The translations under genes and the position numbers were made by a program. A stretch of DNA of 64,000 nt. Source: a virus. Shown here in pieces: positions 787-19,241 of the stretch. The stretch covers positions 1 through 64,000 of IMG/VR virus record IMGVR_UViG_3300021963_007890. One strand, given 5' to 3'. Position 1 is the stretch's first letter, and the number at the start of each line of letters is the position of its first letter. The notes below the pieces were generated by a model that saw nothing but the letters and a program-made list of their open reading frames with translations, ran no database searches and was not told where the DNA came from.

Positions 787-2526
787 ATGGCCTTGTTAAC
801 GTTTAAGAGTACCAATAGCGAACATTATGTAGTTGGGTTAACCCTAGGCTTAGGCATAGGTTATAGAATCAGTGGTGGAGCAATTCTAGCACCTAGACCT
901 ACTGTTCAAACACTTACAACCCTCAACGGTGCTACCAGCACTTGGGTCAGTAGTGCCACCAATGTAATCATTAGTGATATTGTCTGTCCCAGTGTATTTG
1001 CCACTACACCCGAAGGCCAAGGCACAATTTATACCGTAACCATTAATAATATTGGCCTTGCGCCTCTAGTGGTAGAAACACCTATCTTCAGTAATTTGGT
1101 CACAGAGGCTAGACCGATATTTTCAGGAGGTCTCTATTCTAGCCCGCCTTGGACTATTCAACCTGGAGATAATGCCAAATTTGGCTTGAGTTATTATACG
1201 GCAGACACTGGTGTGTTCAATGAAGCCATTGTGTTTAGGACCAATGAGGCTGGTGTTTTCAAGCGTAAGGATCTTTTGGTTACCAGCAGCCAGTTATATC
1301 AGTTAACATTGACTCCTAACAATTCTAGTTTTTCCACCAGTTTGCCCAATGAGAATCGCTTGGTCCCTTATACGCTGTCGGCCAGTCTAAATGGAAATAT
1401 GTTAACTGACGTTGAGTTACAATATACGCCAACTCTGTCAGGAAATCCAGCCTGGACCATTGATTCTGTTCAAGGAAATATTGTGACTTTGAGATTTGAC
1501 AGTGCTCGGTTTAATAATGCCACAGGCACCTATGTCAGTACATTGACCATAAATGGTTATGGTGTTCAAATTCAAGCGACTTCAACAGCTAGTCACAGTG
1601 TTGACCTAGTACAGAATCGTTCTAGTTCTAGTTGGATCAGCACATTGACACAGCCCGATGCCATAATAGGAGCAAGAATAGACCTAGTAAATGGTCAGCG
1701 TACTTTGACATTGGGAGTTGGTAGTGGTGCTGATGGTTCTGATTCCTTGTCTCAGAATAACATTTACTTTAGAGCTGAGTATCTTAATCCAATCTATGGT
1801 CGTGGCAGGATACCATTTCCTTATTGGCAGACAGTATACCAGATGCCATTGACCTCAAGCACTAGTTATCTCAGTGGCAATTATAGGGTAAAGACACAGA
1901 GCGCCAGCACTAGAGATTATGATTGGTATTTTGGTCATTATAACAGTACAGGAAGTTTATTCCTAGTTGATGTTGATCCTTTTGGTAATACCAGTATAAG
2001 ACTCAATGATCTAAGAGAAACCACTCAGGGTCTAGATCCTGTGTTAGACGCCACACTAGATCGATTAACTAGAAGTTTCTATTATTATAGCTTACAGGAT
2101 CAGATCAATGGAGGACGGGTCACCCAGTTAGGCAATCGACTAGACAATAATGGTAATGTTTATGAAACTATAACGCCACCTCTGTCATTTGTTGAAACCA
2201 CAGCAGGAACTAAGGATGTAAAAATTAGATTTAGTTCGACTCACGCTCTTTATGTTGGACAGCCTATTGACATATATGATATAGTTAGAGGTTTCCTTCA
2301 ACCGTTACCTGCTTGGTTGGGGAATTATGTTGTCAAAAGTGTGGACAGTAGCACTCAAGTCAGTTATGAAAGTTCAACTGTGACCAATTGGGTATCCAGC
2401 GATATTGTCAGTGTCAGCACCACTACCTTAGTTGTTGTTCCTTCGGGAGAGTTTTGTCTTTTCTTTGCAGGATTCGATCAGACCAATAACACAGTAACCA
2501 GTTTGGTCGCTATTCCTCCTTTATAA
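787..2526 (+). CDS. Putative virion structural protein with Ig-like beta-sandwich domains
   Basis: 579 aa, Ser/Thr/Val-rich; TVTINNIGLAPLVV...PWTIQPGDNAKFGLSY resembles Ig-like (ASH/choice-of-anchor) domains. Confidence 0.5.
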   Translation: MALLTFKSTNSEHYVVGLTLGLGIGYRISGGAILAPRPTVQTLTTLNGATSTWVSSATNVIISDIVCPSVFATTPEGQGTIYTVTINNIGLAPLVVETPIFSNLVTEARPIFSGGLYSSPPWTIQPGDNAKFGLSYYTADTGVFNEAIVFRTNEAGVFKRKDLLVTSSQLYQLTLTPNNSSFSTSLPNENRLVPYTLSASLNGNMLTDVELQYTPTLSGNPAWTIDSVQGNIVTLRFDSARFNNATGTYVSTLTINGYGVQIQATSTASHSVDLVQNRSSSSWISTLTQPDAIIGARIDLVNGQRTLTLGVGSGADGSDSLSQNNIYFRAEYLNPIYGRGRIPFPYWQTVYQMPLTSSTSYLSGNYRVKTQSASTRDYDWYFGHYNSTGSLFLVDVDPFGNTSIRLNDLRETTQGLDPVLDATLDRLTRSFYYYSLQDQINGGRVTQLGNRLDNNGNVYETITPPLSFVETTAGTKDVKIRFSSTHALYVGQPIDIYDIVRGFLQPLPAWLGNYVVKSVDSSTQVSYESSTVTNWVSSDIVSVSTTTLVVVPSGEFCLFFAGFDQTNNTVTSLVAIPPL

Positions 2527-2556
2527 TATATAATTAGTAGATAACACCTTGACTAT

Positions 2557-4392
2557 ATGTTTATAGACCAGTTCCCACAACTCTCTTTTGAAGAATTTAG
2601 ATCAATAGAATACGATCCCGCAAGAGATTATGATATGGATCTCAGCCTCGCCTGTTCAAAATATAAAGTCTGCGTGGTAAAAAATTATGACCTAGAGAAG
2701 AGCAGTCAGTTAGCATTGATAAGAGATCTGCCCCATAATCCAGAAGGTAAGACAGTGATCTGGACCTATAGAGGCATTTGGTTGGCCAAGCTATTCCACA
2801 AAGGGTGGAATCCTAGGCAAGGCTATATTGAAATTGACATTCCTCGTCCTAGTTTAAGCTGGAGGAAAAATCCAGATATTGATTTCAGTATGGATTTTTT
2901 TGATAGCCCATTAGGTCAATATGAACCAGAGCCGTGGGATCATGATTATACCATGGTATGGTATATGGACCCTGTGTTTAACCCCACATCAGATAAAATA
3001 TGGGTTATGACATGTAGCGTCCTTGGCAAATCAGATAAGGGCATAAAGGATATGGGTTATCTGACTCCACAGATCACTTTAGAATTTAATCCAGAACTAC
3101 CTGATCTCAGTCTGGATACAGCTAGCTTGATGCCGGCCTATTGGGATTTAGAATATGAATGTGCCTGGTATTTAGATAAAGAACTAGCAAAAACTCAAGA
3201 TCCTATATGGGTGGCCAAGGTAACACCTGTTTATAGAAAAACTAAGGATTGGAAGTGGCTGGGATATATAACACCTGAGTTTGAAACAATTTTGAATCCT
3301 GATTTTGTTAATCTTAAATTTGATATAGATATCAATAATCTTTCATTAGATGACCTACACTATGAATGTGTCTATCTATTAGATAGATGTCATTTAGATG
3401 ACCTTGATCAAGATGATATTTGGGCTGTAAAGATTAAAGTAACTGATAATATTTTAGGTAGTAAAATTAAGGGATATATTAGCCCTAGAGTAGAATTTGA
3501 AAAAAATTCTAGTCTGATGCACGTGACAGATTTTAGTTTTCTAGATTCAGTTATTTTTAAGATAAATCAATTTAATAAAGTATTAGTTTGGTATTCTGAT
3601 CCTAAGACAACAGAGAATGAAAAAATATGGTTGGCCAAGGCTAGACTAAACAATAATATCAAGCGTGAGGTCACTGCGGCTCTTGTTCATTTAGAAATTG
3701 AAACAGTATTTGATGTATTCTTTATCAGTTATGGAGAACCAAATTCAGATGAAAATTGGCAGCGTGTTAAGGAAAAAGCCCCCAATGCTCAACGTATAAA
3801 AAATGTCAAAGGTATATATCAAGCTCACGCCAAGGCAGCAGCACAGGCTAAGACAAGTATGTTTTGGGTGGTTGATGGTGACAGCTATCTAACAGATGAT
3901 TTTGATTTTAATTTCTGTCCCGGTATATATGATAGAGATTGTACATTTATTTGGTCTAGTCGCAACCCAGTAAACGGATTAGTCTATGGACACAGTGGAG
4001 TAAAGTTGTTTCCAAAAAATATTTTTGAAAAGGAAATTGAGTTTTTAGATCTAAGCACTTCTATCAATTCAAAAATAAAAATTCGTAGTCAAATATCCAA
4101 CGAAAATAGATTTAATGTTGATGAATTTAATACTTGGAAAACCGCCTTTAGAGAAGTTATTAAGATACAACATAATATTCAACAAAAGTTAGATTTAAGC
4201 ACAAACAAGCTCAGACTTAATCATTGGCTCTTAAAAGGAGAAGATAAGATTTTTGGCTCTTACTCAATTAAAGGAGCCAAGAGTGCGCTAGAATTCTACA
4301 AGTCTCATCCCGATCAAATTAGAAAAATTAATGATTGGAAATTTCTACGAGAAAAATTCAAAGATGAAGATAAACAGGAAAAAGGTCAGTAA
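2557..4392 (+). CDS. Repeat-containing protein with C-terminal GT-A glycosyltransferase-like domain
   Basis: About four ~70-aa repeats (NP.....W..Y..VWYLD...IW.K....GYI.P), then FDVFFISYGEP...KGIYQAHAKAA...MFWVVDGD (DxD after a hydrophobic strand). Confidence 0.65.
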   Translation: MFIDQFPQLSFEEFRSIEYDPARDYDMDLSLACSKYKVCVVKNYDLEKSSQLALIRDLPHNPEGKTVIWTYRGIWLAKLFHKGWNPRQGYIEIDIPRPSLSWRKNPDIDFSMDFFDSPLGQYEPEPWDHDYTMVWYMDPVFNPTSDKIWVMTCSVLGKSDKGIKDMGYLTPQITLEFNPELPDLSLDTASLMPAYWDLEYECAWYLDKELAKTQDPIWVAKVTPVYRKTKDWKWLGYITPEFETILNPDFVNLKFDIDINNLSLDDLHYECVYLLDRCHLDDLDQDDIWAVKIKVTDNILGSKIKGYISPRVEFEKNSSLMHVTDFSFLDSVIFKINQFNKVLVWYSDPKTTENEKIWLAKARLNNNIKREVTAALVHLEIETVFDVFFISYGEPNSDENWQRVKEKAPNAQRIKNVKGIYQAHAKAAAQAKTSMFWVVDGDSYLTDDFDFNFCPGIYDRDCTFIWSSRNPVNGLVYGHSGVKLFPKNIFEKEIEFLDLSTSINSKIKIRSQISNENRFNVDEFNTWKTAFREVIKIQHNIQQKLDLSTNKLRLNHWLLKGEDKIFGSYSIKGAKSALEFYKSHPDQIRKINDWKFLREKFKDEDKQEKGQ

Positions 4393-5345
4393 TGGAACAT
4401 TCTTATATTAAATTAGAACATAGTAAACCTGAACATTCAAATTGGTTTGTTGTCAATTGGTGTTTAGGTAATACCTGTAATTTCTCCTGTAATTATTGTC
4501 CAGAAAACCTACATGACGGCAGCGTAAAATGGCCAACAATTGAAACTATTAAAAGTTTTATCAGCAGGGTAGTTGATCAGGTATCCCCTAAAAAAGTTTA
4601 TTTTGAATTTACAGGTGGTGAAGTAACACTTTATAGAAACTTTGTACAAATTTGTCAACACGTAACCAGCCTAGGTGCTAAGGTAGGCCTCATTAGTAAT
4701 GGCAGTAGAACATTACGCTGGTGGGAAGAAAATAAGCAATACTTTGATCATGTATGTCTCAGTTTTCACCCAGAATTCTCAAAGATGGATCATTTTATTG
4801 ATGTGGTGAGGCTCTTAAACAATGACGTAAGAACACATGTTAATATAATGATGGATCCCAATCAATTTGACTATTGTTATTCAGTGGCTAACAAGGTAAA
4901 AGATCTAGGAAATATCAGCATGGCTCTTCAGCCTTTGATCCACGACTTTGGTGAAGTATTATTTGACTATAACGAATTTCAAAAAAAGATTTTTGAAAAA
5001 CAACATGATCTAATTTCCAAACATATAAAGTTTACTAGAACTTTTGAATATTATCGCGGTGCTATGAAAATGGTTTATTCGGATGGAAAAACCGAAGTCA
5101 GTAGTGCTCATAGATTTTTAAGTTTTAAGACCAACGATTGGAGCGGATGGAAGTGTTATGCCGGTGTTGAACAAATCATAATTGATATGAATGGGAACAT
5201 TTTCAGAGGTTGGTGTCTTGAAGGTGGTAAGATTGGCAATATTGATGATAAAAAATTGAAACTGGTAAAGAGTCCAATATTGTGTACTAAAAAAATGTGT
5301 CATTGTAATTTTGATATAATGAGCACTAAGGAATTAATCCAATGA
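4392..5345 (+). CDS. Radical SAM enzyme 1 (N-terminal rSAM core, C-terminal SPASM/twitch-like domain)
   Basis: CNFSCNYC; FTGGEVT; SNGSR; C-terminal KCYAG...IDMNG...WC...GNI...CTKKMCHC. TAATG coupling to the upstream gene. Confidence 0.9.
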   Translation: MEHSYIKLEHSKPEHSNWFVVNWCLGNTCNFSCNYCPENLHDGSVKWPTIETIKSFISRVVDQVSPKKVYFEFTGGEVTLYRNFVQICQHVTSLGAKVGLISNGSRTLRWWEENKQYFDHVCLSFHPEFSKMDHFIDVVRLLNNDVRTHVNIMMDPNQFDYCYSVANKVKDLGNISMALQPLIHDFGEVLFDYNEFQKKIFEKQHDLISKHIKFTRTFEYYRGAMKMVYSDGKTEVSSAHRFLSFKTNDWSGWKCYAGVEQIIIDMNGNIFRGWCLEGGKIGNIDDKKLKLVKSPILCTKKMCHCNFDIMSTKELIQ

Positions 5346-6730
5346 CCGAAAAATTAAACGTACCAATTCAAACAAATGCTTTCGATACCATTTGTGATTT
5401 GAAGTGGAATTATCCTATTTTTAATTTAGACAGAGGTGAATTTCGAAGTTGTTGTAGAACCCCTAGTAGAAGAGTCAGTGATCAAGATTTAGACAACTTT
5501 GGAACTGATGCGTTTTTAAACTCACATCAAATGCTTCAAAGTAGATTAGATTTAATTAAAGGCGTTCGTAATATAGATTGTCAAAGTTGTTGGAATCTAG
5601 AAGACAAGGGTATGAAGAGTCCCAGACACAAACCTGAACAGTTTTGGCATCATCTACAAGCAAGGCGTCATATTTCTCAAGATCTTTCATATAGCGAAGA
5701 AAATTTAAGGATAGAATTAGACAAGATAAATTCTCTAGATCATCTTGCGCTTCAATCTAAACATCCTTATATGTTAGAAATTAGTTTAGGAAATACTTGT
5801 GATATGAAATGTATGTATTGTAGTCATCATTATTCAACACAATGGGCTACAGAGCGTATCAAATATAAAGAAATAACACAAGAGCAGTATGATAGGGAAT
5901 TTCCAAAAGCTCCGGAAAAGTTTAATGAAAAATTTTGGGAATGGTTTGACAGTGTTAAAATATATCTTAGAAGACTAGGTATCATAGGTGGAGAGCCTCT
6001 TATCATGCCCGAGTTTTATTCCTTTGCTGATCAATGTATCGAAAGAATGGACCAGATCAAACATCTTAGAAAAGATAAGATGAGCTTTTGGATAGTTACA
6101 AATATGAATACTCCTTCAAACTATTTAGAAAAGTTCTTTCAAAATCTCCCTAAGTTGACAGAAGTCTTTAATGTAGAAATACTTGTAAGTATGGAAAGTG
6201 TAGGACCTAGAGCTGAATATATTAGGAATGGTGTTAATTGGAAAAGATTTACTGATAATTTAGATAGACTATTGTCTAAATCAGATTTAAAATTTGATTT
6301 TGGTTTTATTTTAAGTATGAATGCCCTCAACATTGCCGGTATTTCAGAATTTATAAAATTTACAGAAGATCTTTACCTACGTTATAACAGACCAGTAGCA
6401 CTGAAACATAATATAATAAGTTTCCCTGATTGGCAGACTCCTTTTATTCTAACTTCAGATTTTGCCAAGTATATAGATGATTGTGTTGAATATATGAAAA
6501 CAAAAGTCGATGTAATGCCTTTAGTGAATGATTATTACGGTAGGTGGGATCAATATATAATATTTTTAGAAAATTTATCACAGAGTATTAAAGATAACGG
6601 CGCAGATAATACCTTAATGAGGAAAAAATTTGCAGAGTGGTTTGATACCTATGATCAAAGAAGAAAACTTAACCTGCTTGAAGTTTTTCCTGAATATAAG
6701 GATTTTTATAATTTCTGTAAAGATTTGTAA
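5342..6730 (+). CDS. Radical SAM enzyme 2 (N-terminal twitch-like domain)
   Basis: N-terminal CDLKW...RSCC...CQSCW..E; CDMKCMYC; IIGGEPL. Confidence 0.9.
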   Translation: MTEKLNVPIQTNAFDTICDLKWNYPIFNLDRGEFRSCCRTPSRRVSDQDLDNFGTDAFLNSHQMLQSRLDLIKGVRNIDCQSCWNLEDKGMKSPRHKPEQFWHHLQARRHISQDLSYSEENLRIELDKINSLDHLALQSKHPYMLEISLGNTCDMKCMYCSHHYSTQWATERIKYKEITQEQYDREFPKAPEKFNEKFWEWFDSVKIYLRRLGIIGGEPLIMPEFYSFADQCIERMDQIKHLRKDKMSFWIVTNMNTPSNYLEKFFQNLPKLTEVFNVEILVSMESVGPRAEYIRNGVNWKRFTDNLDRLLSKSDLKFDFGFILSMNALNIAGISEFIKFTEDLYLRYNRPVALKHNIISFPDWQTPFILTSDFAKYIDDCVEYMKTKVDVMPLVNDYYGRWDQYIIFLENLSQSIKDNGADNTLMRKKFAEWFDTYDQRRKLNLLEVFPEYKDFYNFCKDL

Positions 6731-8097
6731 TGGATAAACAAATTTTCATACCAATCCTTGAAATTGGCGATAAAATGCCTAGACTACGAAAAATTGCCGA
6801 AGCAATAGACAGAGAAAGCGAAATTGGTATTGCACCAATTGTTTATGGTTCAGGTGATTGGACAGAAGAACTAAGAGAGAAAGTTCCTGAAAATTTTTGT
6901 TTATATCCTTTTACACATTTTCAATTAGACCCTGATGGCCGAGCTCGTCCTTGCTGTAAATATAAAGTAGGCGACGATACTTGGCAAGCAGACGTTCCTA
7001 AATTACCCCAAGTCAACATTGGCCAATTATGGGAGCAAGAAGAATTTCAAAACCTTAGACGACAATTTTTAAATAATGAACGTCCATCGGGATGTAAAGC
7101 CTGTTGGGACGAAGAAGCAGCGGGTATTAGAAGTATGCGACTAGTAAGAGAGCGAGGAGGTAAAGAACATCCTTTTGCTACATTCTTCATCCACATTCCC
7201 AGACCTTATCCAAAAAGTCTTGATTTAAAACTAAGTAACCTGTGTAACTTAAAATGTAGGATTTGTACTCCTTTTCTTAGCACTCAATGGATCAATGAAA
7301 TAAAAGCATTGAATATTCACGATATGGGAACTGTTGAAAGTTTCTCCCGTAATTCAAGAGAAAAGTTTTTGGCAGATCCTCAAAACGAAATTATCTTGAC
7401 AAAATGGGCGAAAACAATTGAATATGTTGAGTTCTATGGCGGAGAACCATTGTTACAGCAGGAGCATGATAAGATAATTAATATCATTTACCAGCGTGGT
7501 ATTCCATCAAACACAGGACTTTATTATAATACCAATACAACTATCTGCAAAGAAGAATTATTTAAACTCTGGAAACCTTTCAGAGAAGTCTGTATAAACT
7601 TTAGTATAGATGATATTAAGGAGAGATTTGAATACCAACGAGCCAATGCCAATTGGGAACAGTCCTTGGCCAATATTCGTATGTACCAAGAACTATCTCG
7701 TAAGTATAGTGTAAACATGAAAATTCGATTGTATGTTACTGTAGGTATTCTGAATGTATGGTATATTAAAGAGTTTATTGAATATGTTGAACATCTAAAT
7801 ATTCCTGTTACATTTAATATGGTTCATTACCCACATCATTATTCGATTACAAATTTGCCAGAAGAGGTCAAGGACATTGTCAAAAAGAAACTTTTATCAA
7901 TTAATTTTAAAAATGTTTTAGATCCTCATTCTCCGACGGCAACTAATATAATTAATTTTATGTATGGAACAAAGACTGATTCTAATCAATTAAAAACATT
8001 CTTTTTAAAGACTAGAATTCATGATGAATACCGAAAAGAATCGTTTAATAATACTTTTCCAGAATTGTTTGGCATATTAAAGAAATATGAAACCTGA
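6730..8097 (+). CDS. Radical SAM enzyme 3 (N-terminal twitch-like domain)
   Basis: CLYPF...DPDG..RPCC...CKACWDEE; CNLKCRIC; YGGEPL. Confidence 0.9.
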   Translation: MDKQIFIPILEIGDKMPRLRKIAEAIDRESEIGIAPIVYGSGDWTEELREKVPENFCLYPFTHFQLDPDGRARPCCKYKVGDDTWQADVPKLPQVNIGQLWEQEEFQNLRRQFLNNERPSGCKACWDEEAAGIRSMRLVRERGGKEHPFATFFIHIPRPYPKSLDLKLSNLCNLKCRICTPFLSTQWINEIKALNIHDMGTVESFSRNSREKFLADPQNEIILTKWAKTIEYVEFYGGEPLLQQEHDKIINIIYQRGIPSNTGLYYNTNTTICKEELFKLWKPFREVCINFSIDDIKERFEYQRANANWEQSLANIRMYQELSRKYSVNMKIRLYVTVGILNVWYIKEFIEYVEHLNIPVTFNMVHYPHHYSITNLPEEVKDIVKKKLLSINFKNVLDPHSPTATNIINFMYGTKTDSNQLKTFFLKTRIHDEYRKESFNNTFPELFGILKKYET

Positions 8098-9259
8098 AAC
8101 ATTTTGTTCTCTACCATGGATTAACTTATCAACCGATGTTAATGGATCATTGCGCCCTTGTTGTAAATTTGCTCAACCAGATCCTCTGAATGAATATCAG
8201 TTGCCTAATATGAAAGAAGGCAGTTTAGATATCCTATGGAATGATATTAGGTTTCAAAATTTAAGGCAAGCATTCTTAGAAGGAAAGAAACCAAGAGAAT
8301 GTCAATGCTGTTGGGATGAAGAAGCAGCAGGGATTTCATCATTTAGAAAAGAATTTGCCAAGCATAGAAATATTAATCTTAACACAATAAAATTCACACC
8401 AATCGCCACTAATGGACCTATGGCAATGGATTTGAAACTCAATAATGTCTGTAATCTTAAGTGCAGAATTTGTGGCCCACAGGCAAGCTCTACCTTTTTA
8501 AAAGAATACCAAGAAATATTTAATATTAAAGTTGAAGATGGAGAATACTGGTTATCTAACAAGATATTAGGAACTGCCAATGAAGAAGTAATTAGAAAAT
8601 GGGCTAAAGATATTGTACATTTAGAAATCACTGGTGGAGAGCCTATGGCTAGTCCAGAAAATATAAAGGTATTACAATTACTCATAGAGGAAGATAGATC
8701 TCAATATATTACACTTTTATTGAATACCAACGGAACTTTATATAATAAAAAGTTTATTGATGTTATTTTAAAATTTAAACAGGTAATTTTCAATATATCA
8801 ATTGATGATATAGATAATAGACTCGAGTATGAGAGATATCCAACAGATTGGAATTTAATAGAATCTAATATTATAAAATTCTTAAAAGTAAGAGAATCTA
8901 ATAAAAATTTTGTAATATACCTTTGCCCTACTGTAAGTATGTTTAATGTTTATTATTTGCCTGAATATTTAAATTGGGCAAAAAGTAAAAAATTACCTTG
9001 GTATTTTAATATATTACATTATCCGCCTAACCATAGTATTAAAAATTTGCCCAATGAGATAAAAGACATTGTGGCAGAAAGATTAACAACATCTGAGTTT
9101 ACTTCAGTAAAAAACTTTTTATTATTACCTAGCGAAAGTGATATCTTCATTGAAGAGTTTATCAGATTAAATGAAGAAAGAGATGTAATCAGAAGACAGG
9201 ACTTTCATGAAACATTTGGTGAATGGGCAGCACTTCTAAATAGATATAGATCAAAATGA
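8087..9259 (+). CDS. Radical SAM enzyme 4 (N-terminal twitch-like domain); close paralog of enzyme 3
   Basis: CSLPW...DVNG..RPCC...CQCCWDEEAAGI; CNLKCRIC; TGGEPM; NTNGT. Confidence 0.9.
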   Translation: MKPETFCSLPWINLSTDVNGSLRPCCKFAQPDPLNEYQLPNMKEGSLDILWNDIRFQNLRQAFLEGKKPRECQCCWDEEAAGISSFRKEFAKHRNINLNTIKFTPIATNGPMAMDLKLNNVCNLKCRICGPQASSTFLKEYQEIFNIKVEDGEYWLSNKILGTANEEVIRKWAKDIVHLEITGGEPMASPENIKVLQLLIEEDRSQYITLLLNTNGTLYNKKFIDVILKFKQVIFNISIDDIDNRLEYERYPTDWNLIESNIIKFLKVRESNKNFVIYLCPTVSMFNVYYLPEYLNWAKSKKLPWYFNILHYPPNHSIKNLPNEIKDIVAERLTTSEFTSVKNFLLLPSESDIFIEEFIRLNEERDVIRRQDFHETFGEWAALLNRYRSK

Positions 9260-10398
9260 ATAAACTGACTAAACAGCAAATAGAAGAATATAATCTTAAA
9301 CGTACAGAATTTGATATGAATAGGACTATAGATAAGGTTAGTCCTTGTTTAGCTCCTTTTAATAATATGTATTTTACTACAGAAGGCAATGTGGCACCTT
9401 GCTGGTTATTAGTAGGACATGTAGATAAGTGGACTCCTACACGAAGTATTAAAGATATATGGTTTGGAGAGAAGTTTACTGAATATAGAAACAATCTAAA
9501 AGAAGGTATATTCGAAAGCAAGTGTAGAATCTGTAAACAGAAGATTGAAGCAGATACTTGGCCTTTGGCCTTGGCCTATGACGGTTTCAGTATTAAAAAT
9601 TATCCCACTTTATTAGAATTAGAACTGAGCAATCAATGTAACCTAGAATGTATAATGTGTGAAGGCAGATTAAGTTCTGGTATTAGAAAGAACAGAGACA
9701 AGCTACCAGCATTGCCACAGGTATATGATGCTGTATTTGTTGAACAATTAAAAGAATTTATTCCACATCTAGAAGAGTTGCGTTTCAATGGTGGAGAACC
9801 GTTCGCACAAAGGATTGTATATGATATTTGTATGTTAGTGGCTGAATTACATCCTACATTAAGAATTAACATTGCTACTAACGGAACAGTTTATAATAAA
9901 CAAGTTAAGAATATATTAGATAAATGTAATGTTCATTTGAATATCAGTATTGATAGTTTAGATAAAGATAACTATGAATCAATACGTATCAATGGCAACT
10001 TTGAAGATCTAATGAACAATTTTAAGTTATTCAATGCCTATTGTAAAGAAAATGACCGCGGATTAAGTGTAATGGTAAATCCTATGCGTAATAACTGGTG
10101 GGAAATGCCAGAGTTTGTTAAGTTTACGACAGATAATGAAGTACACCTTTGGTATAATACAATTCATCATCCTGAACATTTGGGTATATGGAACTTATCT
10201 AGTGGCGAACTTGATATTATATTACAGACATTAAGACCTAGGGTAGAGGAATTAACCCCACTTAATCATGATAATTATACAGCATTTGGTAATTGGCAGA
10301 AATTAGATCATTTTGTAAACAAACAGGTTGCCAACTGGCATAATAAACAATTACAGCGAAGCAATAAAATAATACCAATTTCTAAGATAGTGGATTAA
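9256..10398 (+). CDS. Radical SAM enzyme 5 (N-terminal SPASM/twitch-like domain)
   Basis: CLAPF...EGNVAPCW...CRIC; CNLECIMC; NGGEPF; ATNGT. Confidence 0.9.
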   Translation: MNKLTKQQIEEYNLKRTEFDMNRTIDKVSPCLAPFNNMYFTTEGNVAPCWLLVGHVDKWTPTRSIKDIWFGEKFTEYRNNLKEGIFESKCRICKQKIEADTWPLALAYDGFSIKNYPTLLELELSNQCNLECIMCEGRLSSGIRKNRDKLPALPQVYDAVFVEQLKEFIPHLEELRFNGGEPFAQRIVYDICMLVAELHPTLRINIATNGTVYNKQVKNILDKCNVHLNISIDSLDKDNYESIRINGNFEDLMNNFKLFNAYCKENDRGLSVMVNPMRNNWWEMPEFVKFTTDNEVHLWYNTIHHPEHLGIWNLSSGELDIILQTLRPRVEELTPLNHDNYTAFGNWQKLDHFVNKQVANWHNKQLQRSNKIIPISKIVD

Positions 10399-12304
10399 TA
10401 GCAAAGACCTTTTTTGACTGTGTCTTTTTTGATTCTACCCAGACACCGTTAGATTCAAATACATATCTAAAGTTTTTTATACCATCTACTTTATTCCTAT
10501 AACGGTCAATGAAGTAATATGAATTTTTTACAGAATAATTACCGTTGTCGTCAATTTTGAACCAAATATCAGTTTGATATTCAAAGTTATTTGGATTTAA
10601 TAGTGCTGAAGAAAAGTCTCTACTATCTATTTCTTTATTGAATGGAATTTTTATTTCAAAAGAGCCCATTACTCGCCATAACATTCTTAAAAATCCAAAT
10701 ACTTCGTTCATTACTGAATCTGCAAAATCGCCCTGTCCTGAATTAATAATTGAGTAATCAAAATCTTCATACTCTACGTGTTCATTAGGTTCGTTATTAC
10801 AGATTAATGAATAATGCTCTTTTATATCTCCCTGTATTCTGTAGACATTTTCAAATGTTCCTCCTGTATCTTTACAAATCTGACACCATATGTACAAAAG
10901 TTTGACTCTTATAAATCTATGAAGTTGAGTATTTTTAAAATCTAATGTATACCAGTGATCTGCCCACGGTTTATCTCTATGATTTATATTAAATTTTTCA
11001 CGATCATCGTAAGCAGACCCATAATCGTCTCCAAGCCCTGCGCCTGGAGCTACAGCTACTATTCGTTTCTTATGGTTCCATAGCATATTAAGAGTGTGAT
11101 TATATGCTTCAATATCTTCTCCCGGCGCCCCTATAACCATACAGGCACTAACCAACATACCTACTTTGGCAGAATCAATAATATTTTGATTTATGTCTGC
11201 TACGGTATTCTTTTTATTAACTGCTTTTAATACTTTATCACTGCCACTTTCAAACCCATAATTAGCACCTTGTAACCCTGCGGCCTTCATCAATTTGTAG
11301 AATTCTAAATCCATACGGCCGTCTGCTCTCATATATCCCCACCAACCAATTTTTAAATCTCTTTTGATTAGTTCTTCACAAAAACGACGGAATTCTTTTA
11401 GATTACCATTCATCAGACTGTCAACAAATTGAACAAAAGTAACTCCATAATGATTGACCTGATATTCTAACTCATCTACTACTGTTGTGGCACCTCTATC
11501 CCTATACTTCCAATAATATACTTCAGTACAGTAAGTACATTTGGCAATACAGCCTCTACTAAGTTCGGAACAAATAGTATTCTTACCTATATACTTTGTT
11601 AGGTCAAAATCACTATAATCTGGATATGGAAGACTATCGATATCTATTCTAGTATCACTATAAAGGCTTCCAATTTTCTTTTCAGTTGGTTTTATTCCCT
11701 GTTCCCAATTATTTAAAAAATCTATTAGATTTTGTTCGCTCTCTCCTACAAAATAATAGTCTGATTGATTCGGCGGCAATAACCAATGACATTCAGGGCC
11801 TCCTAGGATAATAGTTATATCTGGCCTAATTTTTTTTATCTCACCAATCATCCATATGGTTGGCACTATATTATTCCGATAGCAGCTGAATCCAATAATG
11901 TCTGGCTCATCAGATAAGATTTGATTCATATATTTTATTAAGAATGGTTCGTGTGTTGGATGTATTTTTGTAAAATAATCTTTTTTATCCCACCACCAGA
12001 AGTTTGCTCCGTTCCAGGCATCTTCTAAATCACTGTTAGCTGCCCTTAGGTCATAATAGGCCTGAATATTGAAATCATAAACTTTAGTTGTATATCCAGC
12101 AGACCTCGTCAATGATGATAGCCTTGCTAAATTATATACAGGCATGAATACGGCCCAACTGGCTAAAAGACACAAAGTCAATTTAGTTTTTCTTGTGGCT
12201 TCAAAAACCATAACAGATTTTACCCCTGTTCTTAATTTTCGATCGCGTGTAGGATTAACTTTAGGAAATATTTTTTCTGCTAGGTAAGTATCTCTATCTG
12301 ACAT
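10382..12304 (-). CDS. Cobalamin-binding (class B) radical SAM enzyme, probable methyltransferase
   Basis: B12-binding domain (PDIIGFSCY...IILGGPECH...VGESE), LPYPDYSDF, SRGCIAKCTYC, FVDSLMNG, GFESGSDKVLKAVNK. Confidence 0.88.
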   Translation of the reverse strand: MSDRDTYLAEKIFPKVNPTRDRKLRTGVKSVMVFEATRKTKLTLCLLASWAVFMPVYNLARLSSLTRSAGYTTKVYDFNIQAYYDLRAANSDLEDAWNGANFWWWDKKDYFTKIHPTHEPFLIKYMNQILSDEPDIIGFSCYRNNIVPTIWMIGEIKKIRPDITIILGGPECHWLLPPNQSDYYFVGESEQNLIDFLNNWEQGIKPTEKKIGSLYSDTRIDIDSLPYPDYSDFDLTKYIGKNTICSELSRGCIAKCTYCTEVYYWKYRDRGATTVVDELEYQVNHYGVTFVQFVDSLMNGNLKEFRRFCEELIKRDLKIGWWGYMRADGRMDLEFYKLMKAAGLQGANYGFESGSDKVLKAVNKKNTVADINQNIIDSAKVGMLVSACMVIGAPGEDIEAYNHTLNMLWNHKKRIVAVAPGAGLGDDYGSAYDDREKFNINHRDKPWADHWYTLDFKNTQLHRFIRVKLLYIWCQICKDTGGTFENVYRIQGDIKEHYSLICNNEPNEHVEYEDFDYSIINSGQGDFADSVMNEVFGFLRMLWRVMGSFEIKIPFNKEIDSRDFSSALLNPNNFEYQTDIWFKIDDNGNYSVKNSYYFIDRYRNKVDGIKNFRYVFESNGVWVESKKTQSKKVFAINPLS

Positions 12305-12314
12305 AGTTTCTCTT

Positions 12315-13451
12315 TTATTTTAATATAGGCATAAAGATTTTAGGAAATTGAACAACTTCGGGCAATGACAAAATTTCCTTGGCCCTTTCATAGTACGGAT
12401 TGTCTGGAATCCATACAGCCATATCATCAAATTCTTTTTGAGATGCTACGCCCCATTTTAATATGTTTACAATCGAAATCTCTGGTAATTTATCCGGATA
12501 ATTATATGCTAGTTTTACCAATTCAGGAATTGATTCGAGGTTATCTCTCTGTAAAATTACATTCCAAGCCCAATTTTTTTCAGGGTCCTGCTTTATAGTA
12601 TTATGATATAGATAATCTAAATTTTTCCATAGCAAATCCCAGTCTCCTCCTCGCCGCACGATTTCATAACTTGATTTATTTCCTGCATCAACACTTATTC
12701 TAGTCCAGGATGCTCTATCAAACAATACCTTGTATTTGTTTTGAATTTTTTCCGTCATCATTGTACCGTTAGTACATAAACACAAACGAAAGTTTGGCCA
12801 TTTCTCGGGAGTTTTAAATACTTCTGCTGTGTCGAATAATTCTCTATAGACAGGACTAAAAAATATTTCTCCAGCACCATCGAATGTTATTGTGATATGT
12901 TGATCGTGTGGTTCGCTAAACACAGAATCAAAAACCTTTCTTAATATGGTGAGAGAACGATCGAAGTTATCTGGTGTTATGGACTTAACTGATCGGCAAC
13001 TAGGGCATACTAAATTACAAGAATAATCAATTGAAAACACCACGTTGCTAGGAAATTTACTATTCGGTGCTTTGAATGTATCTTTAGGAAGAAGTTTATG
13101 GCCCTCTCCTGCTAACATCATTGTACAAGTTTTTGAATTACAATATCTATATGATCCGTCTGTAATTGAATTCCGAACGGTTTGTGCTTTTATTCCGGTC
13201 CAAATAGAAGTTAGATCTTCTTCTAACAGATTACCTATACAAGCAGGGTTCCACGAGGTACAACATATATAAACATTTCCATTGGCATGAACATCTATGT
13301 CATAAAACGGCATTTGGCATATATTCTTATTCTTATCAAATTTACACGAATCAGTCTTATCTTCGTAGATCTCGTAATAAAGTTTTCCTAATATTGGATC
13401 ATCGATCACAGTTTTCGGATACGACACCCTGGTTTCTGTTATTATTGACAT
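12315..13451 (-). CDS. Radical SAM enzyme 7 (N-terminal SPASM-like domain)
   Basis: CQMPF...HANGNVYICC...IGNL...YCNSKTC; CNLVCPSC; GAGEIF; CTNGT. Confidence 0.88.
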   Translation of the reverse strand: MSIITETRVSYPKTVIDDPILGKLYYEIYEDKTDSCKFDKNKNICQMPFYDIDVHANGNVYICCTSWNPACIGNLLEEDLTSIWTGIKAQTVRNSITDGSYRYCNSKTCTMMLAGEGHKLLPKDTFKAPNSKFPSNVVFSIDYSCNLVCPSCRSVKSITPDNFDRSLTILRKVFDSVFSEPHDQHITITFDGAGEIFFSPVYRELFDTAEVFKTPEKWPNFRLCLCTNGTMMTEKIQNKYKVLFDRASWTRISVDAGNKSSYEIVRRGGDWDLLWKNLDYLYHNTIKQDPEKNWAWNVILQRDNLESIPELVKLAYNYPDKLPEISIVNILKWGVASQKEFDDMAVWIPDNPYYERAKEILSLPEVVQFPKIFMPILK

Positions 13452-13453
13452 AA

Positions 13454-14680
13454 TTATTTAAAGACTAATTCACTGGCCATTCTTGGAACTATATTTCTGA
13501 TATTATTTCCTCTCACCGTTTCCATCATTTCTGTATATTCTACCCAATTATTATGTATAGCATCTCCTGAATACTCCTGCTGCAAAGTATGTAACACACT
13601 TGAGAACTCATCTGCATAGGGTAATTGGTTATAGTAATTATACAATTCTTGACGAGTGTTATCCGATAGAGTTTGTAATCCTAGAAATCTTGGATACTGA
13701 ACACAGTTGGTAAATCCAAGATGCCTCTTAACTTTATTGTATTTCTTTGAAAGTTCAATCACCCATTGTCGCATTTCGAGTAAGTTAAAAATATTGTAAT
13801 TCATTACCGAACATTGAAGATCGATATTAATGTTAGGCAACTCATTTAATTTGGCAATAACAGGTTCTAAATCTTCAAATTTAGCATCTCCATATCTGAT
13901 GTAGTTAAATAGTTCTCCGATACCATCCATTGATAAATTAAATGTAACTGATTTACACTTTTTAAAGGCGTCAAGAATTTCTTGGTTGATAAATGTTCCA
14001 TTACTTGATAATACGATTCTAATATTTTGAAGGATATCTATTCCATCAAGATAATTTAAAATCGTTAGCGTTTCAGAATTAAGTAATGGCTCGCCGCCTT
14101 TGAGATTGATTGTTCTTAAATAGGTCAAGTTTAACTGTTTAAGATTTTCTAAAATTAGATCTGGATTAGGTAGATGCATTTCTAATGTTCGATATTTCGA
14201 ATTGTCATAAGGCCCTCTGCTTACAGGATCCATGAAAGACATCCTCTGTTGCTTATCTTTGTCGTAGGTTAAAAATACTTTTTTGGCTTTCTTATTATCT
14301 ATCACCCATCTGCTACTAAATCCTGCGCTACAATGAAGACAAGCTAAATTACAGATATTGCTACCGTTAAATTCTAAATAGGTTAATTTTTCTTCGTCCC
14401 AGCCTGTGACATCAAATGTCCCATCAGTGTATAACTTCCTAACGCTCCATCCTGTCTTAGCTTCTCTTTCTTTACAACTTAAACAGGGCTTGGGCCATTG
14501 GTGATTATACATTTGTTCTTTTAACTTTTTCCACTCTGAACTATTGATAATGTTAATTAGACTTTCGTTTTTTAGGTTTCCAATATATTTCCCTTCAAAA
14601 GTACAGCAAGGGCGCACTCCTTTATTAGTATCAACTAATGCTGAAGTTAATGGAGCAGTACATAACACTTTGGTTATCAT
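13454..14680 (-). CDS. Radical SAM enzyme 8 (N-terminal twitch-like domain)
   Basis: CTAPL...RPCC...IGNL...CLSC; CNLACLHC; KGGEPL; SSNGT. Confidence 0.9.
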   Translation of the reverse strand: MITKVLCTAPLTSALVDTNKGVRPCCTFEGKYIGNLKNESLINIINSSEWKKLKEQMYNHQWPKPCLSCKEREAKTGWSVRKLYTDGTFDVTGWDEEKLTYLEFNGSNICNLACLHCSAGFSSRWVIDNKKAKKVFLTYDKDKQQRMSFMDPVSRGPYDNSKYRTLEMHLPNPDLILENLKQLNLTYLRTINLKGGEPLLNSETLTILNYLDGIDILQNIRIVLSSNGTFINQEILDAFKKCKSVTFNLSMDGIGELFNYIRYGDAKFEDLEPVIAKLNELPNINIDLQCSVMNYNIFNLLEMRQWVIELSKKYNKVKRHLGFTNCVQYPRFLGLQTLSDNTRQELYNYYNQLPYADEFSSVLHTLQQEYSGDAIHNNWVEYTEMMETVRGNNIRNIVPRMASELVFK

Positions 14681-15738
14681 TTTCTATCCCCGAAAAGTAT
14701 GTAATCTTCTTTGGTATAGCCATCCATAATTTCACTACCTGATCCTTGATGAGGAGCACTATTCTTATTATCTAAACCGCCTCTTATAGGAACTATGGCC
14801 CACGTACAATATTCAGTAAAAGCTGGTATATTCTTTAATTCTTCTTCGAGGCTTAGTGTTTCTTCACGATTATGTGGTGCCATCATAAACTTAACTTCTA
14901 GGTGGCCGATATTATGATTATCATTTAAAACTTTTTCTTCGGTAACAGCTCGTATGACCTCAACAAACTTTTGTCTATTATAAAATTCAAAATGAGCGCT
15001 AAGATTTAAATCTCCGTAGTGAATAATTTCTCTATAATAATCCGGTTTTCTGCTTCCATTGCTATGTAAGCTCACATGATGATTACAAGCATTAAGATAT
15101 CTTAGCCAATCTAAGAAATCTTTATTGGCAGTAGGTTCCCCACCGCTTATTATAAAATTGACTCTTTGGCCTTTTATAAATTTCTGTTCTATTAAATTAG
15201 TAGCTCTCATTAGGTCAGTTAAAGGCTTGTGCGGATCTGTATTATTATGTATCCATGGCCAACAATATGAACAATCATAATTACAACGACGTCCGATTTC
15301 CCAGTAAATTTGTTTTTGAGCACTAGCGTGAGTTCGCTCTATAGCAACAAATTCTACTAGATCATTATTCCTTAGATCCTTTTCTGTAGGTAAAGATTGA
15401 CCTTTTCTTAGCAAAGGTTTAAATTCAATCTTTTTTGTTTTAGGTATAAAAAGATCTGCTCCACAACTGCATACATTTCTAGTACAGTCAATCCAGTCAT
15501 CGGGAACTGTAAAATCTTCCCATACATTTCCTAACTTACCACCTACTCTACAGCTAGCAGTCCATACAATACCGTCCATGTCTATATATAGGCTGTCAAC
15601 TCCTGCTCCGCATTTCCAATCTTTAAGATAATTTAATTTGACACCGACTAATTCATCAGTGCTCCAATCACGCCACTCGCCCTTGCTTGAATAGGTTCTA
15701 ATTGGTTTACCGGGGGTGAAATCTAATTCCATTGACAT
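14677..15738 (-). CDS. Radical SAM enzyme 9 (SPASM-like domain before the rSAM core; domain-swapped relative of enzyme 1)
   Basis: N-terminal WKCGAGVDSLYIDMDG...SCRVGGKLGNV...CTRNVCSCGAD; then CNYDCSYC, SGGEPT, SNGSR, LSAHFEF. Confidence 0.9.
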   Translation of the reverse strand: MSMELDFTPGKPIRTYSSKGEWRDWSTDELVGVKLNYLKDWKCGAGVDSLYIDMDGIVWTASCRVGGKLGNVWEDFTVPDDWIDCTRNVCSCGADLFIPKTKKIEFKPLLRKGQSLPTEKDLRNNDLVEFVAIERTHASAQKQIYWEIGRRCNYDCSYCWPWIHNNTDPHKPLTDLMRATNLIEQKFIKGQRVNFIISGGEPTANKDFLDWLRYLNACNHHVSLHSNGSRKPDYYREIIHYGDLNLSAHFEFYNRQKFVEVIRAVTEEKVLNDNHNIGHLEVKFMMAPHNREETLSLEEELKNIPAFTEYCTWAIVPIRGGLDNKNSAPHQGSGSEIMDGYTKEDYILFGDRK

Positions 15739-15821
15739 TATAGTTTTCCATACATTGAATTTAAATCGTGTAGTTGAGGAAATATTTCCTCAAAGGTTAT
15801 TAAAATATTTAAACCATTCAT
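15738..15821 (-). other. 27-codon upstream ORF (MNGLNILITFEEIFPQLHDLNSMYGKL), stop overlapping the start of rSAM 9; gene remnant or leader peptide
   Basis: Translated by hand; TAATG overlap at 15736-15740; FEEIFPQL resembles the C-terminal F..xFPEL tail of neighbouring rSAMs. No clear SD. Confidence 0.35.
15774..15793. promoter_or_regulatory. Perfect 20-bp palindrome TTGAGGAAATATTTCCTCAA in the divergent intergenic region
   Basis: Sequence equals its own reverse complement; function unknown. Confidence 0.45.
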
Positions 15822-15850
15822 AGAATCTTTATTGTAGTATATCTGGTCAA

Positions 15851-15869
15851 TAAATATTGCTTTATTTAG
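15851..15869. promoter_or_regulatory. TAAATA late-promoter motifs on both strands (+ 15851-15856 toward the methyltransferase; - 15863-15868 toward the rSAM operon)
   Basis: TAAATA on + and TATTTA on + (TAAATA on -); the same motif precedes many structural genes in this window. Confidence 0.5.
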
Positions 15870-15882
15870 CGACCTATAATTT

Positions 15883-16431
15883 ATGAAAATTGATATTCTT
15901 AAGGATGCTTTTAGTAGTGGACAGGTTTCTAGTAAAATCTGGCTCTGTGAAGAACTAGAGAGGACACGTTGGACCAGTAATGAAACAGCAATATATGGTG
16001 GTTGGTATGCGATAACAGCATTTTTACTATTGAGCAGAGGTAAGTTTAAAGTCGATCGAATACGCAGTTACGATATTGATCCTACTTGTGAAACTATGGC
16101 AGACTTAATAAATGAAAATTGGGTATGGCGTGATTGGCAATTTAAAGCCCTCACAGAAGATTGTAATCTAATAAAAACAAAAGCAGATTTGGTCATTAAC
16201 ACTAGTACAGAACATTTTGATTCCAAACAATGGTTTCATAATATTGCAGATGGAACTAGGGTAATACTACAGGGAAATAATATGAAACATAGTGATCACG
16301 TTGTTTTAGGTAAGAATCTACAACAATTTTTAAACCATTATCCTTTGTCTAAAATTAGATATAGTGGGCAGCTTGATTTTCAATATCCTTCCTGGTCATT
16401 CACTAGGTTTATGGTGGTTGGCATAAAATAA
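15883..16431 (+). CDS. Class I SAM-dependent methyltransferase-like protein
   Basis: Motif I-like AIYGGWYA, acidic motif II IRSYDIDP, DLVINTSTEH. Confidence 0.75.
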   Translation: MKIDILKDAFSSGQVSSKIWLCEELERTRWTSNETAIYGGWYAITAFLLLSRGKFKVDRIRSYDIDPTCETMADLINENWVWRDWQFKALTEDCNLIKTKADLVINTSTEHFDSKQWFHNIADGTRVILQGNNMKHSDHVVLGKNLQQFLNHYPLSKIRYSGQLDFQYPSWSFTRFMVVGIK

Positions 16432-17435: not shown

Positions 17436-17443
17436 ATAATTTG

Positions 17444-18713: not shown

Positions 18714-18715
18714 TA

Positions 18716-19030: not shown

Positions 19031-19061
19031 TTGTATTTCCTTTTTTATATATAACGCCTTA

Positions 19062-19196: not shown

Positions 19197-19222
19197 CGCT
19201 GCCTCCGTTTGTCTATGTAAAG

Positions 19223-19241
19223 TATTTATAGGCTATAAATA
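19223..19241. promoter_or_regulatory. Back-to-back T4-type late promoters (TATTTATA-GGC-TATAAATA)
   Basis: Exact TATAAATA on both strands, facing the iscU-iscA operon and erpA. Confidence 0.7.

Follow-up and report, generated by a model that had tools for sequence, protein, structure and literature searches.

The first 64 kb of the 118,417-bp IMG/VR record IMGVR_UViG_3300021963_007890 (estimated by CheckV to be 28% complete), hereafter the window, carry nine consecutive genes for radical S-adenosylmethionine (SAM) enzymes, R1 to R9, set between a gene with a glycosyltransferase-like domain (B) and a methyltransferase-like gene (M). We favour, with about an even balance of confidence, the reading that this cassette is a phage-borne module that tailors a sugar or glycan, makes an unusual modified sugar and transfers it. 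Sugar chemistry with a transfer step is suggested because the constant partners of the radical-SAM genes are a transferase fold and methyltransferases, because B is fused to R1 in some phages, because related cassettes contain inserted sugar-type tailoring genes, because bacterial homologues lie in polysaccharide-type neighbourhoods, and because DegT-like, epimerase/dehydratase and GT1-like genes are found elsewhere on the record. On this reading, the phage cassette would be the viral counterpart of arrays of radical-SAM enzymes with an N-terminal twitch domain in bacterial polysaccharide-type loci. Among the candidate targets listed in an initial annotation of this DNA, glycan tailoring gains most from the bacterial and phage neighbourhoods and from the B–R1 fusion; as acceptor, a virion surface protein or a glycan of the host envelope seems to us likelier than DNA.

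Twelve open reading frames (ORFs) occupy positions 787–16431, and the nine radical-SAM ORFs among them span 4392–15738, five on the plus and four on the minus strand (Table 1). The ORF list and a motif scan reproduce the ORFs and coordinates of the initial annotation, and the tight couplings that it described are all present: TAATG junctions at B/R1 and R2/R3, ATGA junctions at R1/R2, R4/R5 and R8/R9, an 11-nt overlap of R3 and R4, and gaps of 10 and 2 nt at R6/R7 and R7/R8, respectively. R5 and R6 meet tail to tail in a 17-bp overlap (10382–10398). Because contigs from two other sequencing runs, belonging to two other studies, span this junction with no differences, it is not a misassembly but part of a circulating genotype. 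The limit of 16431 first given to the island, on the other hand, was too narrow. An IscU-type scaffold and two A-type carriers for iron–sulfur (Fe–S) cluster assembly are encoded 2–3 kb beyond M, at 18026–19570, with scores above the cut-offs of the families of the ISC (iron–sulfur cluster) type (NifU_N, 177.7 bits; Fe-S_biosyn, 56.4–67.5 bits in two genes), and we regard them as functionally part of the cassette. Fe–S assembly genes accompany the cassette in five related contigs, and the IscU gene (cluster c16) is syntenic with it in L015, L016, L025, L031 and L037.

Table 1. Genes and intervals of the radical-SAM cassette and of the adjoining Fe–S assembly genes (positions in the 64-kb window).
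Feature	Position	Strand	Description
A	787..2526	+	579 aa, rich in Ser/Thr; possibly associated with the cassette, as a candidate acceptor or virion protein
B	2557..4392	+	611 aa; N-terminal ~70-aa repeats and C-terminal GT-A-like domain (residues 384-611)
R1	4392..5345	+	Radical-SAM, C-terminal Cys-rich (twitch-like) domain; Radical_SAM 41.2 bits; CNFSCNYC at residue 29
R2	5342..6730	+	N-terminal-twitch radical-SAM; N_Twi_rSAM 255.9 bits; CDMKCMYC at residue 153
R3	6730..8097	+	N-terminal-twitch radical-SAM; N_Twi_rSAM 326.7 bits; SPASM 31.5 bits, residues 57-126
R4	8087..9259	+	N-terminal-twitch radical-SAM; N_Twi_rSAM 304.6 bits; SPASM 32.0 bits, residues 7-76
R5	9256..10398	+	N-terminal SPASM/twitch radical-SAM; N_Twi_rSAM 147.8, SPASM 29.8, Radical_SAM 49.8 bits
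R6	10382..12304	-	B12-binding and radical-SAM (class B type), short form; Radical_SAM 47.3, B12-binding 30.3 bits
R7	12315..13451	-	Divergent radical-SAM, N-terminal SPASM/twitch; SPASM 39.3, Radical_SAM 26.5 bits; CNLVCPSC at residue 145
R8	13454..14680	-	N-terminal-twitch radical-SAM; N_Twi_rSAM 229.0 bits; SPASM 34.4 bits
R9	14677..15738	-	Radical-SAM, N-terminal Cys-rich domain; Radical_SAM 58.4 bits
Divergent intergenic region	15739..15882	.	144 bp, between the R9-R6 operon and M
M	15883..16431	+	182 aa; predicted class I SAM-methyltransferase fold
A-type Fe-S carrier (IscA/ErpA type)	18026..18343	-	Fe-S_biosyn about 56.4-56.9 bits, cut-off 26.3
IscU-type Fe-S scaffold	18330..18713	-	NifU_N 177.7 bits, E 8.3e-54
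Second A-type Fe-S carrier	19247..19570	+	Fe-S_biosyn 67.5 bits

All nine proteins contain exactly one CxxxCxxC motif and match the Pfam family Radical_SAM (PF04055), eight of them above its gathering score of 29.5 bits (33.8–58.4 bits). R7 stays below this cut-off, at the same 26.5 bits in a six-frame search, which revealed no further Radical_SAM match in the 118,417-bp record. R2, R3, R4 and R8 match N_Twi_rSAM (NCBIfam NF033640, twitch domain-containing radical SAM protein), a subfamily model without an assigned reaction, over its full length and above its cut-off of 170 bits (229–327 bits). Since R5 (147.8 bits) and R7 (46.8 bits) fall below 170 bits, we treat them as relatives of this family and not as members. 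These six N-terminal-twitch paralogs are 19–34% identical to one another, and in their alignment no variation is seen in the N-terminal Cys columns, in CxxxCxxC or in a GGE motif; C57, C75 and C125 (R3 numbering) lie upstream of C172/C176/C179. R4 has 404 database relatives at E ≤ 1e-5.

Eight of the nine enzymes had been credited with extra Cys motifs. We find a second Cys-rich site in eight, but the Pfam SPASM/twitch model (PF13186, cut-off 21.5 bits) exceeds its cut-off in only five (R3, R4, R5, R7 and R8), always at the N terminus; it has no match in R1, R2 and R9, where the extra Cys motifs were recognized by eye and by alignment. R1 and R9 have a common Cys-rich domain, CxAG...IDxxG...C...GN...C..CxC, that no Pfam model matches and that stands at the C terminus of R1 but at the N terminus of R9. 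BLASTP aligns both the cores of the two proteins (E 6e-15) and their Cys domains (E 2e-12), with the order swapped, and on this comparison R1 and R9 are circularly permuted paralogs. The auxiliary domain is thus N-terminal in seven of the eight enzymes having one. BtrN, anSME and PqqE are twitch/SPASM radical-SAM enzymes acting on sugars or peptides, and the cassette enzymes resemble this type in combining a radical-SAM core with a Cys-rich SPASM/twitch-type auxiliary domain. They differ from it in the position of that domain, which in the BtrN/anSME/PqqE type is C-terminal, and score only 24–26 bits with the anSME model (cut-off 349) and 29.5 bits with that of PqqE (cut-off 381).

R6 is the enzyme that the initial annotation called B12-dependent. 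Its putative B12-binding domain (PF02310), N-terminal to the radical-SAM domain, remains just short of the cut-off in the window (30.3 against 32.1 bits) and passes it, at 42.4 bits, in a relative with 68% identity (L032). The order of domains is that of class B radical-SAM methyltransferases (such as the PhpK family and the C-methyltransferases of RiPPs, peptides made on the ribosome and modified after translation), which are its best family matches, although far below their cut-offs (105 against 600; 102 against 282). R6 reaches none of the equivalog cut-offs for PhpK, BchE, HpnR or tryptophan 2-C-methyltransferase; all of its 22 NCBIfam equivalog matches are below cut-off, the best being a lipid-biosynthesis B12/radical-SAM protein (115 against 360 bits). 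A sequence search of the PDB gave R6 two matches only, one of which is the apramycin enzyme AprD4 (E 1.3e-4).

The two flanking genes were predicted to encode a GT-A-like (glycosyltransferase A fold) protein and a class I methyltransferase; structure models agree with both at the level of the fold, in the GT-A case with modest scores, and neither finds support in Pfam or PHROG. B begins with about 380 residues that comprise three full and two partial repeats of ~70 aa, and matches no glycosyltransferase family in Pfam, NCBIfam or PHROG. Its residues 384–611 (228 aa) give an AlphaFold2 (AF2) model with a mean predicted local distance difference test score (pLDDT) of 91.7, for which the best Foldseek matches in the PDB are the GT-A transferases SunS, WrtF, RmlT and PBCV-1 A64R (E 1.6e-4 to 1.7e-3; template modelling (TM) score 0.34–0.46). 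The top ~20 PDB matches are GT-A enzymes, with pp-GalNAc-T also listed, and at the position of the DxD motif, after strand 4, 13 of 16 aligned B-like sequences have DGD or DAD. An Atlas lead (0.86) connects B to clusters where Glycos_transf_2 is found in 32% of the members. The similarity to A64R of the chlorovirus PBCV-1 (E 1.4e-3, TM 0.36–0.43, 11% identity) is no better than that to many bacterial GT-A enzymes, and we know of no radical-SAM enzymes in PBCV-1 virion glycosylation. We set aside as noise a match of B to the LynF/TruF/PatF prenyltransferases (16.5 bits, cut-off 140), and its PDB sequence matches to retinoblastoma are spurious. B and R1 are fused into a single ORF, without a start codon at the joint, in L015 and L016, to which L037 and L025, respectively, are identical.

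M matches no Pfam methyltransferase family at E ≤ 0.01 and no PHROG. The AF2 model (pLDDT 83.6) has the N-methyltransferase NodS as its top Foldseek match (E 1.5e-8, TM 0.65) and at least 500 matches at E ≤ 1e-3, and the top matches listed are nearly all SAM-dependent methyltransferases. Eight homologues conserve a Gly-rich GGWYG and an acidic DIDP motif. On this model, M has a class I SAM-methyltransferase fold. Weak matches to MMACHC, a cobalamin-processing protein (Pfam E 2e-3; PDB sequence E 0.15), were also considered, and we dropped this identification because the fold is clearly that of a class I methyltransferase.

Similar radical-SAM arrays had been expected in other uncultured phages, and two separate searches recovered them. 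Scanning IMG/VR with R6 returned 28 contigs (49–68% identity) and a scan with B two more; ORFs of at least 50 aa from these 30 loci and from the window, 31 sources in all and many of them cut by contig ends, were clustered. R6 is present in 30 sources, R5 in 28, R4 and R3 in 26 each, R9 in 22, R2 in 20 and R1 in 14. R8 (9 of 31, often in two copies) and R7 (7 of 31) are, by their rarity, variable members of the cassette. In 27 of the 30 copies of R6, the window's being counted, the protein has 840–912 aa and ends in a Methyltransf_24-like domain; a separate Methyltransf_24 gene found in these cassettes is a homologue of this C-terminal extension. Such fused R6 orthologues (L010–L037) would unite two methylation chemistries, B12-radical-SAM and class I methyltransferase, in one protein. 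In 23 loci, R6 and R5 are separated by a DUF6071 gene. The window contains neither the fused methyltransferase domain nor DUF6071, nor a remnant of either, and its cassette is therefore a reduced form relative to most of its relatives. Among the genes inserted in the relatives, one for a carbamoyltransferase is found in 13 of the 31 sources; others encode methyltransferases (Methyltransf_24 and class I) and a protein joining a cytidylyltransferase to a cupin. Pfam searches of the accessory clusters c10, c15, c23, c31 and c41, and of conserved unlabelled genes of Haliscomenobacter and Legionellales, identified DUF6071 only. A Hydrolase_2 cell-wall hydrolase gene, at 16521–17093 in the window, accompanies M in six sources including the window.

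Selection on these genes appears to be strongly purifying. The median pairwise ratio of non-synonymous to synonymous substitution rates (dN/dS) of R1–R9 and M is 0.045–0.124, calculated from 1 to 13 usable pairs per gene at high dS. The genes are thus co-conserved and maintained and, as first described, form a multi-step radical-SAM cassette that maps onto no pathway with an assigned product. A second collection was anchored on the B domain alone, for which an alignment scan of viral contigs confirmed at least 590 matches. Among the best 80 loci, 67 have a radical-SAM homologue within 10 kb (31 of the 36 loci of at least 15 kb), 51 a second B-like paralog and 39 an M-like gene; an epimerase/dehydratase is found in nine, a UDP-sugar dehydrogenase in eight and a carbamoyltransferase in six. 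Recovery with this different anchor makes the association of B, M and N_Twi genes independent of the first collection of loci. Megablast of the island against GenBank phages gave no match, and in a set of 50,697 GenBank phage records nothing matches R1, one record matches the B domain and R6 gives three distant matches. R3 has 38 distant matches there, in Vibrio phages (for example of the KVP40 type) and Ralstonia phages and none in Campylobacter phages, and the region around the B-like gene of Ralstonia phage RsoM2USA is annotated with hypothetical proteins only.

The bacterial relatives suggest a link to polysaccharides. An alignment of R3 and R4, used to scan species-representative genomes, identified 80 bacterial and archaeal loci with 23–41% identity, all but two titled as metagenome-assembled genomes (MAGs). 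Bacteroidota, Bdellovibrionota, Acidimicrobiia, Planctomycetota and Legionellales are among the groups represented; many of the loci are on contigs of 0.1–4 Mb, and one array can be placed on a chromosome because it lies beside an isoleucyl-tRNA synthetase gene. Arrays reach eight N_Twi paralogs per 20 kb, and five loci contain R1/R9-type enzymes with up to 56% identity. We annotated the 20 most recurrent neighbour clusters, which in raw counts place a GDSL hydrolase in 15 of the 80 loci, a PhyH dioxygenase in 14, a carbamoyltransferase in 13, an ABC (ATP-binding cassette) ATPase in 12, an NAD epimerase/dehydratase in 11, UbiA in nine, GT1 in eight, GT2 in eight plus six, a WelO5-type oxygenase and a B12-radical-SAM enzyme in eight each, DegT and a methyltransferase in seven each, an ABC-2 permease and a UDP-sugar dehydrogenase in six each, and a B-like domain in five. 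For the carbamoyltransferase, a background effect is argued against by the presence of the family in only 4 of 14 control genomes.

The closest parallels to the phage cassette are four loci (L067, L072, L074 and L080) in which B-like genes accompany an N_Twi array; L072, L074 and L080 add a carbamoyltransferase, L072 and L080 also DegT, and L080 a B12-radical-SAM enzyme as well, while DUF6071 was identified in L072 and its cluster-mates in L074. Bacterial loci and phage cassettes thus have in common N_Twi arrays, R1/R9-type enzymes, B12-radical-SAM enzymes, B-like domains, DUF6071, carbamoyltransferase and methyltransferases. Genes for polymer building and export (GT1, GT2, UbiA and ABC/ABC-2) and PhyH/WelO5 dioxygenases are found in the bacterial loci and are absent from the phage cassette, whereas the phage cassette adds Fe–S assembly genes of its own. 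In a FastTree phylogeny of 199 N_Twi proteins, each phage paralog group forms one clade (support 77–100) whose sister is bacterial. It follows that the paralogs diverged before the phage copies split from the bacterial ones, and that the phage enzymes are distinct old specialists and not recent duplicates.

A recurrent type of locus in Bacteroidota MAGs (L087–L109) combines up to nine PhyH paralogs with a WelO5-type oxygenase, a methyltransferase and an ABC/ABC-2 exporter, and also contains N_Twi radical-SAM enzymes, GDSL, UbiA, GT1, an epimerase, a UDP-sugar dehydrogenase and GT2. By gene content it looks like an oxygenase-rich counterpart of the radical-SAM arrays, and we know of no description of a locus of this type. 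On the phage record itself, beyond the window, bases 98510–99031 and 110034–116786 encode a GT1-like protein, a DegT-like aminotransferase and three NAD-dependent epimerase/dehydratases, which together look like a nucleotide-sugar module some 95 kb from the island.

By analogy with characterized enzymes, a sugar-tailoring cassette might work as follows. The phage IscU and the two A-type carriers would load [4Fe–4S] clusters onto the nine enzymes, one radical-SAM cluster in each and, in eight, possibly a further one at the second Cys-rich site. The radical-SAM enzymes would cleave SAM to a 5'-deoxyadenosyl radical that abstracts hydrogen from a C–H bond of the sugar, and the twitch-type cluster would handle the electron, with oxidation, epimerization, dehydration or decarboxylation as possible outcomes, after the model of characterized twitch enzymes that act on sugars. 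R6, the enzyme with the B12 domain, could place a methyl group on an unactivated carbon, and M could add an O- or N-methyl group. Finally, the GT-A-like domain of B, acting in concert with R1, would move the sugar to its acceptor.

Several observations weigh against a sugar-tailoring module. None of the nine enzymes reaches the cut-off of a characterized NCBIfam equivalog. Nor does any of the nine have a close solved structure: the N_Twi profile finds only marginal matches in the PDB, to SuiB (the best, E 0.0028) and MoaA (E 0.028), and PDB sequence searches gave no match for R3 and viperin at E 0.042 for R9. As a class, SPASM/twitch enzymes are known above all for maturing peptides. The structural match of the B domain to GT-A enzymes is modest (E about 1e-4, TM <0.5), and three c22-type sequences have FAK in place of the DxD motif. 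No nucleotide-sugar synthase lies beside the cassette in the window. With 20 clusters annotated, only 41 of the 80 bacterial loci have at least one glycan-type label, and the density of such labels does not fall off within 10 kb of the anchor (0.16–0.22 throughout, with the background rate unmeasured). Finally, being drawn from MAGs, the bacterial set may include mis-binned contigs.

The best-placed alternative, which we nonetheless consider unlikely, is modification of protein or peptide. Radical-SAM enzymes would introduce cross-links, epimerizations or methylations into virion proteins or a RiPP-like phage peptide, and B would glycosylate the same protein. SPASM/twitch domains in five to eight of the enzymes fit this proposal, as does the position of the island among virion genes, and for B Foldseek ranks the peptide S-glycosyltransferase SunS first, with the protein glycosyltransferases A64R and pp-GalNAc-T also listed. 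Many of the weak NCBIfam matches are also to peptide maturases (PapB, WgkB and StsB among them), all far below cut-off. The usual companions of such enzymes were not seen, however: cassette gaps of −17 to +10 nt leave no room for a conserved small ORF, the small ORFs of relatives (56–116 aa, among clustered ORFs of at least 50 aa) are not common across loci, and the Pfam results of the proteins scanned include no family of the RRE (RiPP recognition element) type and no peptidase/exporter family. Bacterial homologues, too, adjoin sugar enzymes and glycan exporters and not precursor peptides. A candidate acceptor is the Ser/Thr-rich protein A, which has no match in Pfam or PHROG; its Atlas structure model is of low confidence, with a weak likeness to ASH/HYDIN Ig-like repeats (TM 0.35) that serves as a lead only. 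An A-like gene lies directly 5' of B in L008 and L009, and a weak partial match (29% identity over 30% of A) is found in L015 and L037, so that A adjoins B in a few loci; but among the 80 loci anchored on the B domain this is the case in only three.

Less probable still is DNA hypermodification, in which a modified sugar or side chain would be built and attached to the bases of phage DNA and so evade host restriction. In phages, a conserved module of several enzymes is often a DNA-modification pathway, and the DNA of T-even phages is a substrate of glycosyltransferases and methyltransferases. A paper on the hypermodification of thymidine reportedly mentions radical SAM (PMC5889632). The very wide spread of the module in viral contigs, seen in the at least 590 B-like matches, would suit a defence of this kind. 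Against this, and as first noted, typical precursor genes are lacking: searches for QueC, GTP cyclohydrolase I and thymidylate-synthase-like (hydroxymethylase) families, positive in 10–13 of 14 control genomes, gave no match to any in the 118,417-bp record, with QueD and DpdA outside the search. Because the record is incomplete, this absence is weak evidence. Neither B nor M has a detectable DNA-binding or base-flipping family, the cassette is in the tail-fibre region and not with replication genes, and the bacterial relatives of the N_Twi enzymes and B are in polysaccharide-type loci with exporters.

We give least credence to an auxiliary metabolic module without a glycoconjugate acceptor, making a diffusible aminoglycoside- or antibiotic-like metabolite or altering a host lipid or cofactor: it would account for the lipid-biosynthesis and AprD4 matches of R6, for UbiA prenyltransferases in nine bacterial loci and for a passage in a cyanophage paper that labels a single radical-SAM gene and its neighbours ‘antibiotic synthesis genes' (PMC12801897), but the supporting matches are all far below family cut-offs, the phage cassette has no carrier, ligase or export gene, and the most constant radical-SAM partner is the transferase fold of B, fused to R1 in some phages, which argues for transfer onto an acceptor.

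Radical-SAM-rich cassettes of T4-like phages are already in print, and the initial statement that no precedent was known was too strong. Timms et al. (2010) counted 11–12 radical-SAM proteins in the Campylobacter phages CP220 and CPt10 and suggested that they had been acquired en bloc (PMC2853527); Nishimura et al. (2017) reported a T4-like marine genome with 12 radical-SAM genes, an A-type carrier, cas4, grx and paaD (PMC5332604); and Zaragoza-Solas et al. (2020) placed radical-SAM cassettes in the host-recognition cluster of pelagimyophages, a hypervariable tail-fibre region (PMC7029224). The three papers leave the cassettes without an assigned function. Like the cassette described here, the published ones gather many radical-SAM genes in an exchangeable non-core region, in one case with Fe–S assembly genes. 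The texts of these papers make no mention of an N-terminal twitch family, of GT-A and methyltransferase partners or of a link to bacterial polysaccharide-type loci. A literature search, mostly outside subscription journals, found general SPASM/twitch papers only and none characterizing N_Twi_rSAM or a phage radical-SAM pathway like this one.

Radical-SAM-assisted sugar tailoring and radical-SAM-rich accessory cassettes of T4-like phages are therefore known in themselves; the present cassette is noteworthy for its size, its own Fe–S supply and its wide distribution. Despite the cost and the oxygen sensitivity of radical-SAM enzymes, a phage lineage of oxic water keeps seven to a dozen of their genes under strong purifying selection, together with its own Fe–S assembly. 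With its GT-A-like partner domain found in at least 590 viral contigs, the cassette probably makes a product that is widespread in nature. The connection of the N_Twi_rSAM family to bacterial loci rich in polysaccharide-type genes is new; it suggests sugar substrates and offers enzymologists compact gene sets. For phage ecology, the cassette is a candidate mechanism of variation in host-recognition regions, and a product displayed on virions or host envelopes would bear on phage–host specificity in abundant aquatic bacteria. A bolder idea, which we regard as a long shot, is that the N-terminal-twitch enzymes are a new class of glycan editors, performing site-specific C–H chemistry (epimerization, oxidation and C-methylation) on the assembled sugars of glycoconjugates, in the manner of the proteusin-type radical-SAM editing of peptides. 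If so, aquatic T4-like phages would own a self-sufficient enzyme set, Fe–S assembly included, for coating virion or host-surface structures with a hypermodified sugar, and such a coat could alter host recognition or block competing phages.

The cassette lies among virion and tail-fibre genes, a setting that the initial annotation recognized and that PHROG and Pfam matches confirm: around it are genes for a baseplate-wedge/tail-fibre connector, virion structural proteins, collagen-like tail fibres and an ATP-dependent DNA ligase, and the window also encodes a Cas4-like exonuclease. Judged from these genes, the source is an uncultured T4-like aquatic myovirus. The G+C content of the radical-SAM island (0.31–0.35) is below that of its flanks (0.37–0.44), and the window has no tRNA genes. 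The late-promoter motifs once invoked in favour of virion tailoring or post-replicative DNA modification carry little weight. TATAAATA occurs six times in the window against 10.7 expected, and the 60 bp upstream of B and of R9 contain no ATAAATA. Around the island, just two genes have ATAAATA where a promoter would lie: M, with the motif 33 bp upstream, and the second A-type carrier, which has TATAAATA 12 bp upstream. Four small genes beside the island (17103–17435, 17393–17689, 17674–18087 and 18716–19069) have no Pfam match.

Two leads to the host point in different directions. A ferredoxin-dependent bilin reductase gene at 53023–53718 (+; Fe_bilin_red, 54 bits), an auxiliary metabolic gene of cyanophage type, hints at a cyanobacterial host, and one structural protein of the window has its best GenBank relatives in Synechococcus myophages (47–50% identity). 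At odds with these cyanophage-type genes, an R4 homologue with 68% identity (P0080) is on a 13.6-kb contig filed at NCBI under a Candidatus Fonsibacter MAG; the contig may be from a phage binned with its host or be mis-binned, and is a weak lead.

At the edge of the window, the 5'-open ORF at 3–779 (+) matches Hint (27.5 bits), Vint and Hom_end_hint, all below cut-off, and may be what is left of a protein that contains an intein or processes itself, truncated by the start of the record. A single ORF at 36038–49453 (+) encodes 4,471 aa with PHROG matches to a family of unknown function (324 bits) and to a ‘tail fiber assembly' family; it is probably a giant structural protein typical of a hypervariable region. 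The 972-aa protein of 53729–56647 (+), which combines a GH19 chitinase/lysozyme-like domain with DUF6934, is probably a virion-associated cell-wall hydrolase. An HNH endonuclease (21437–21946, −) and a PHROG ‘endonuclease' (28488–28949, +), each alone between structural genes, are probably homing endonucleases. A collagen-like tail-fibre protein of 1,179 aa is encoded at 29367–32906 (+), in the stretch of the window richest in G+C (0.48).

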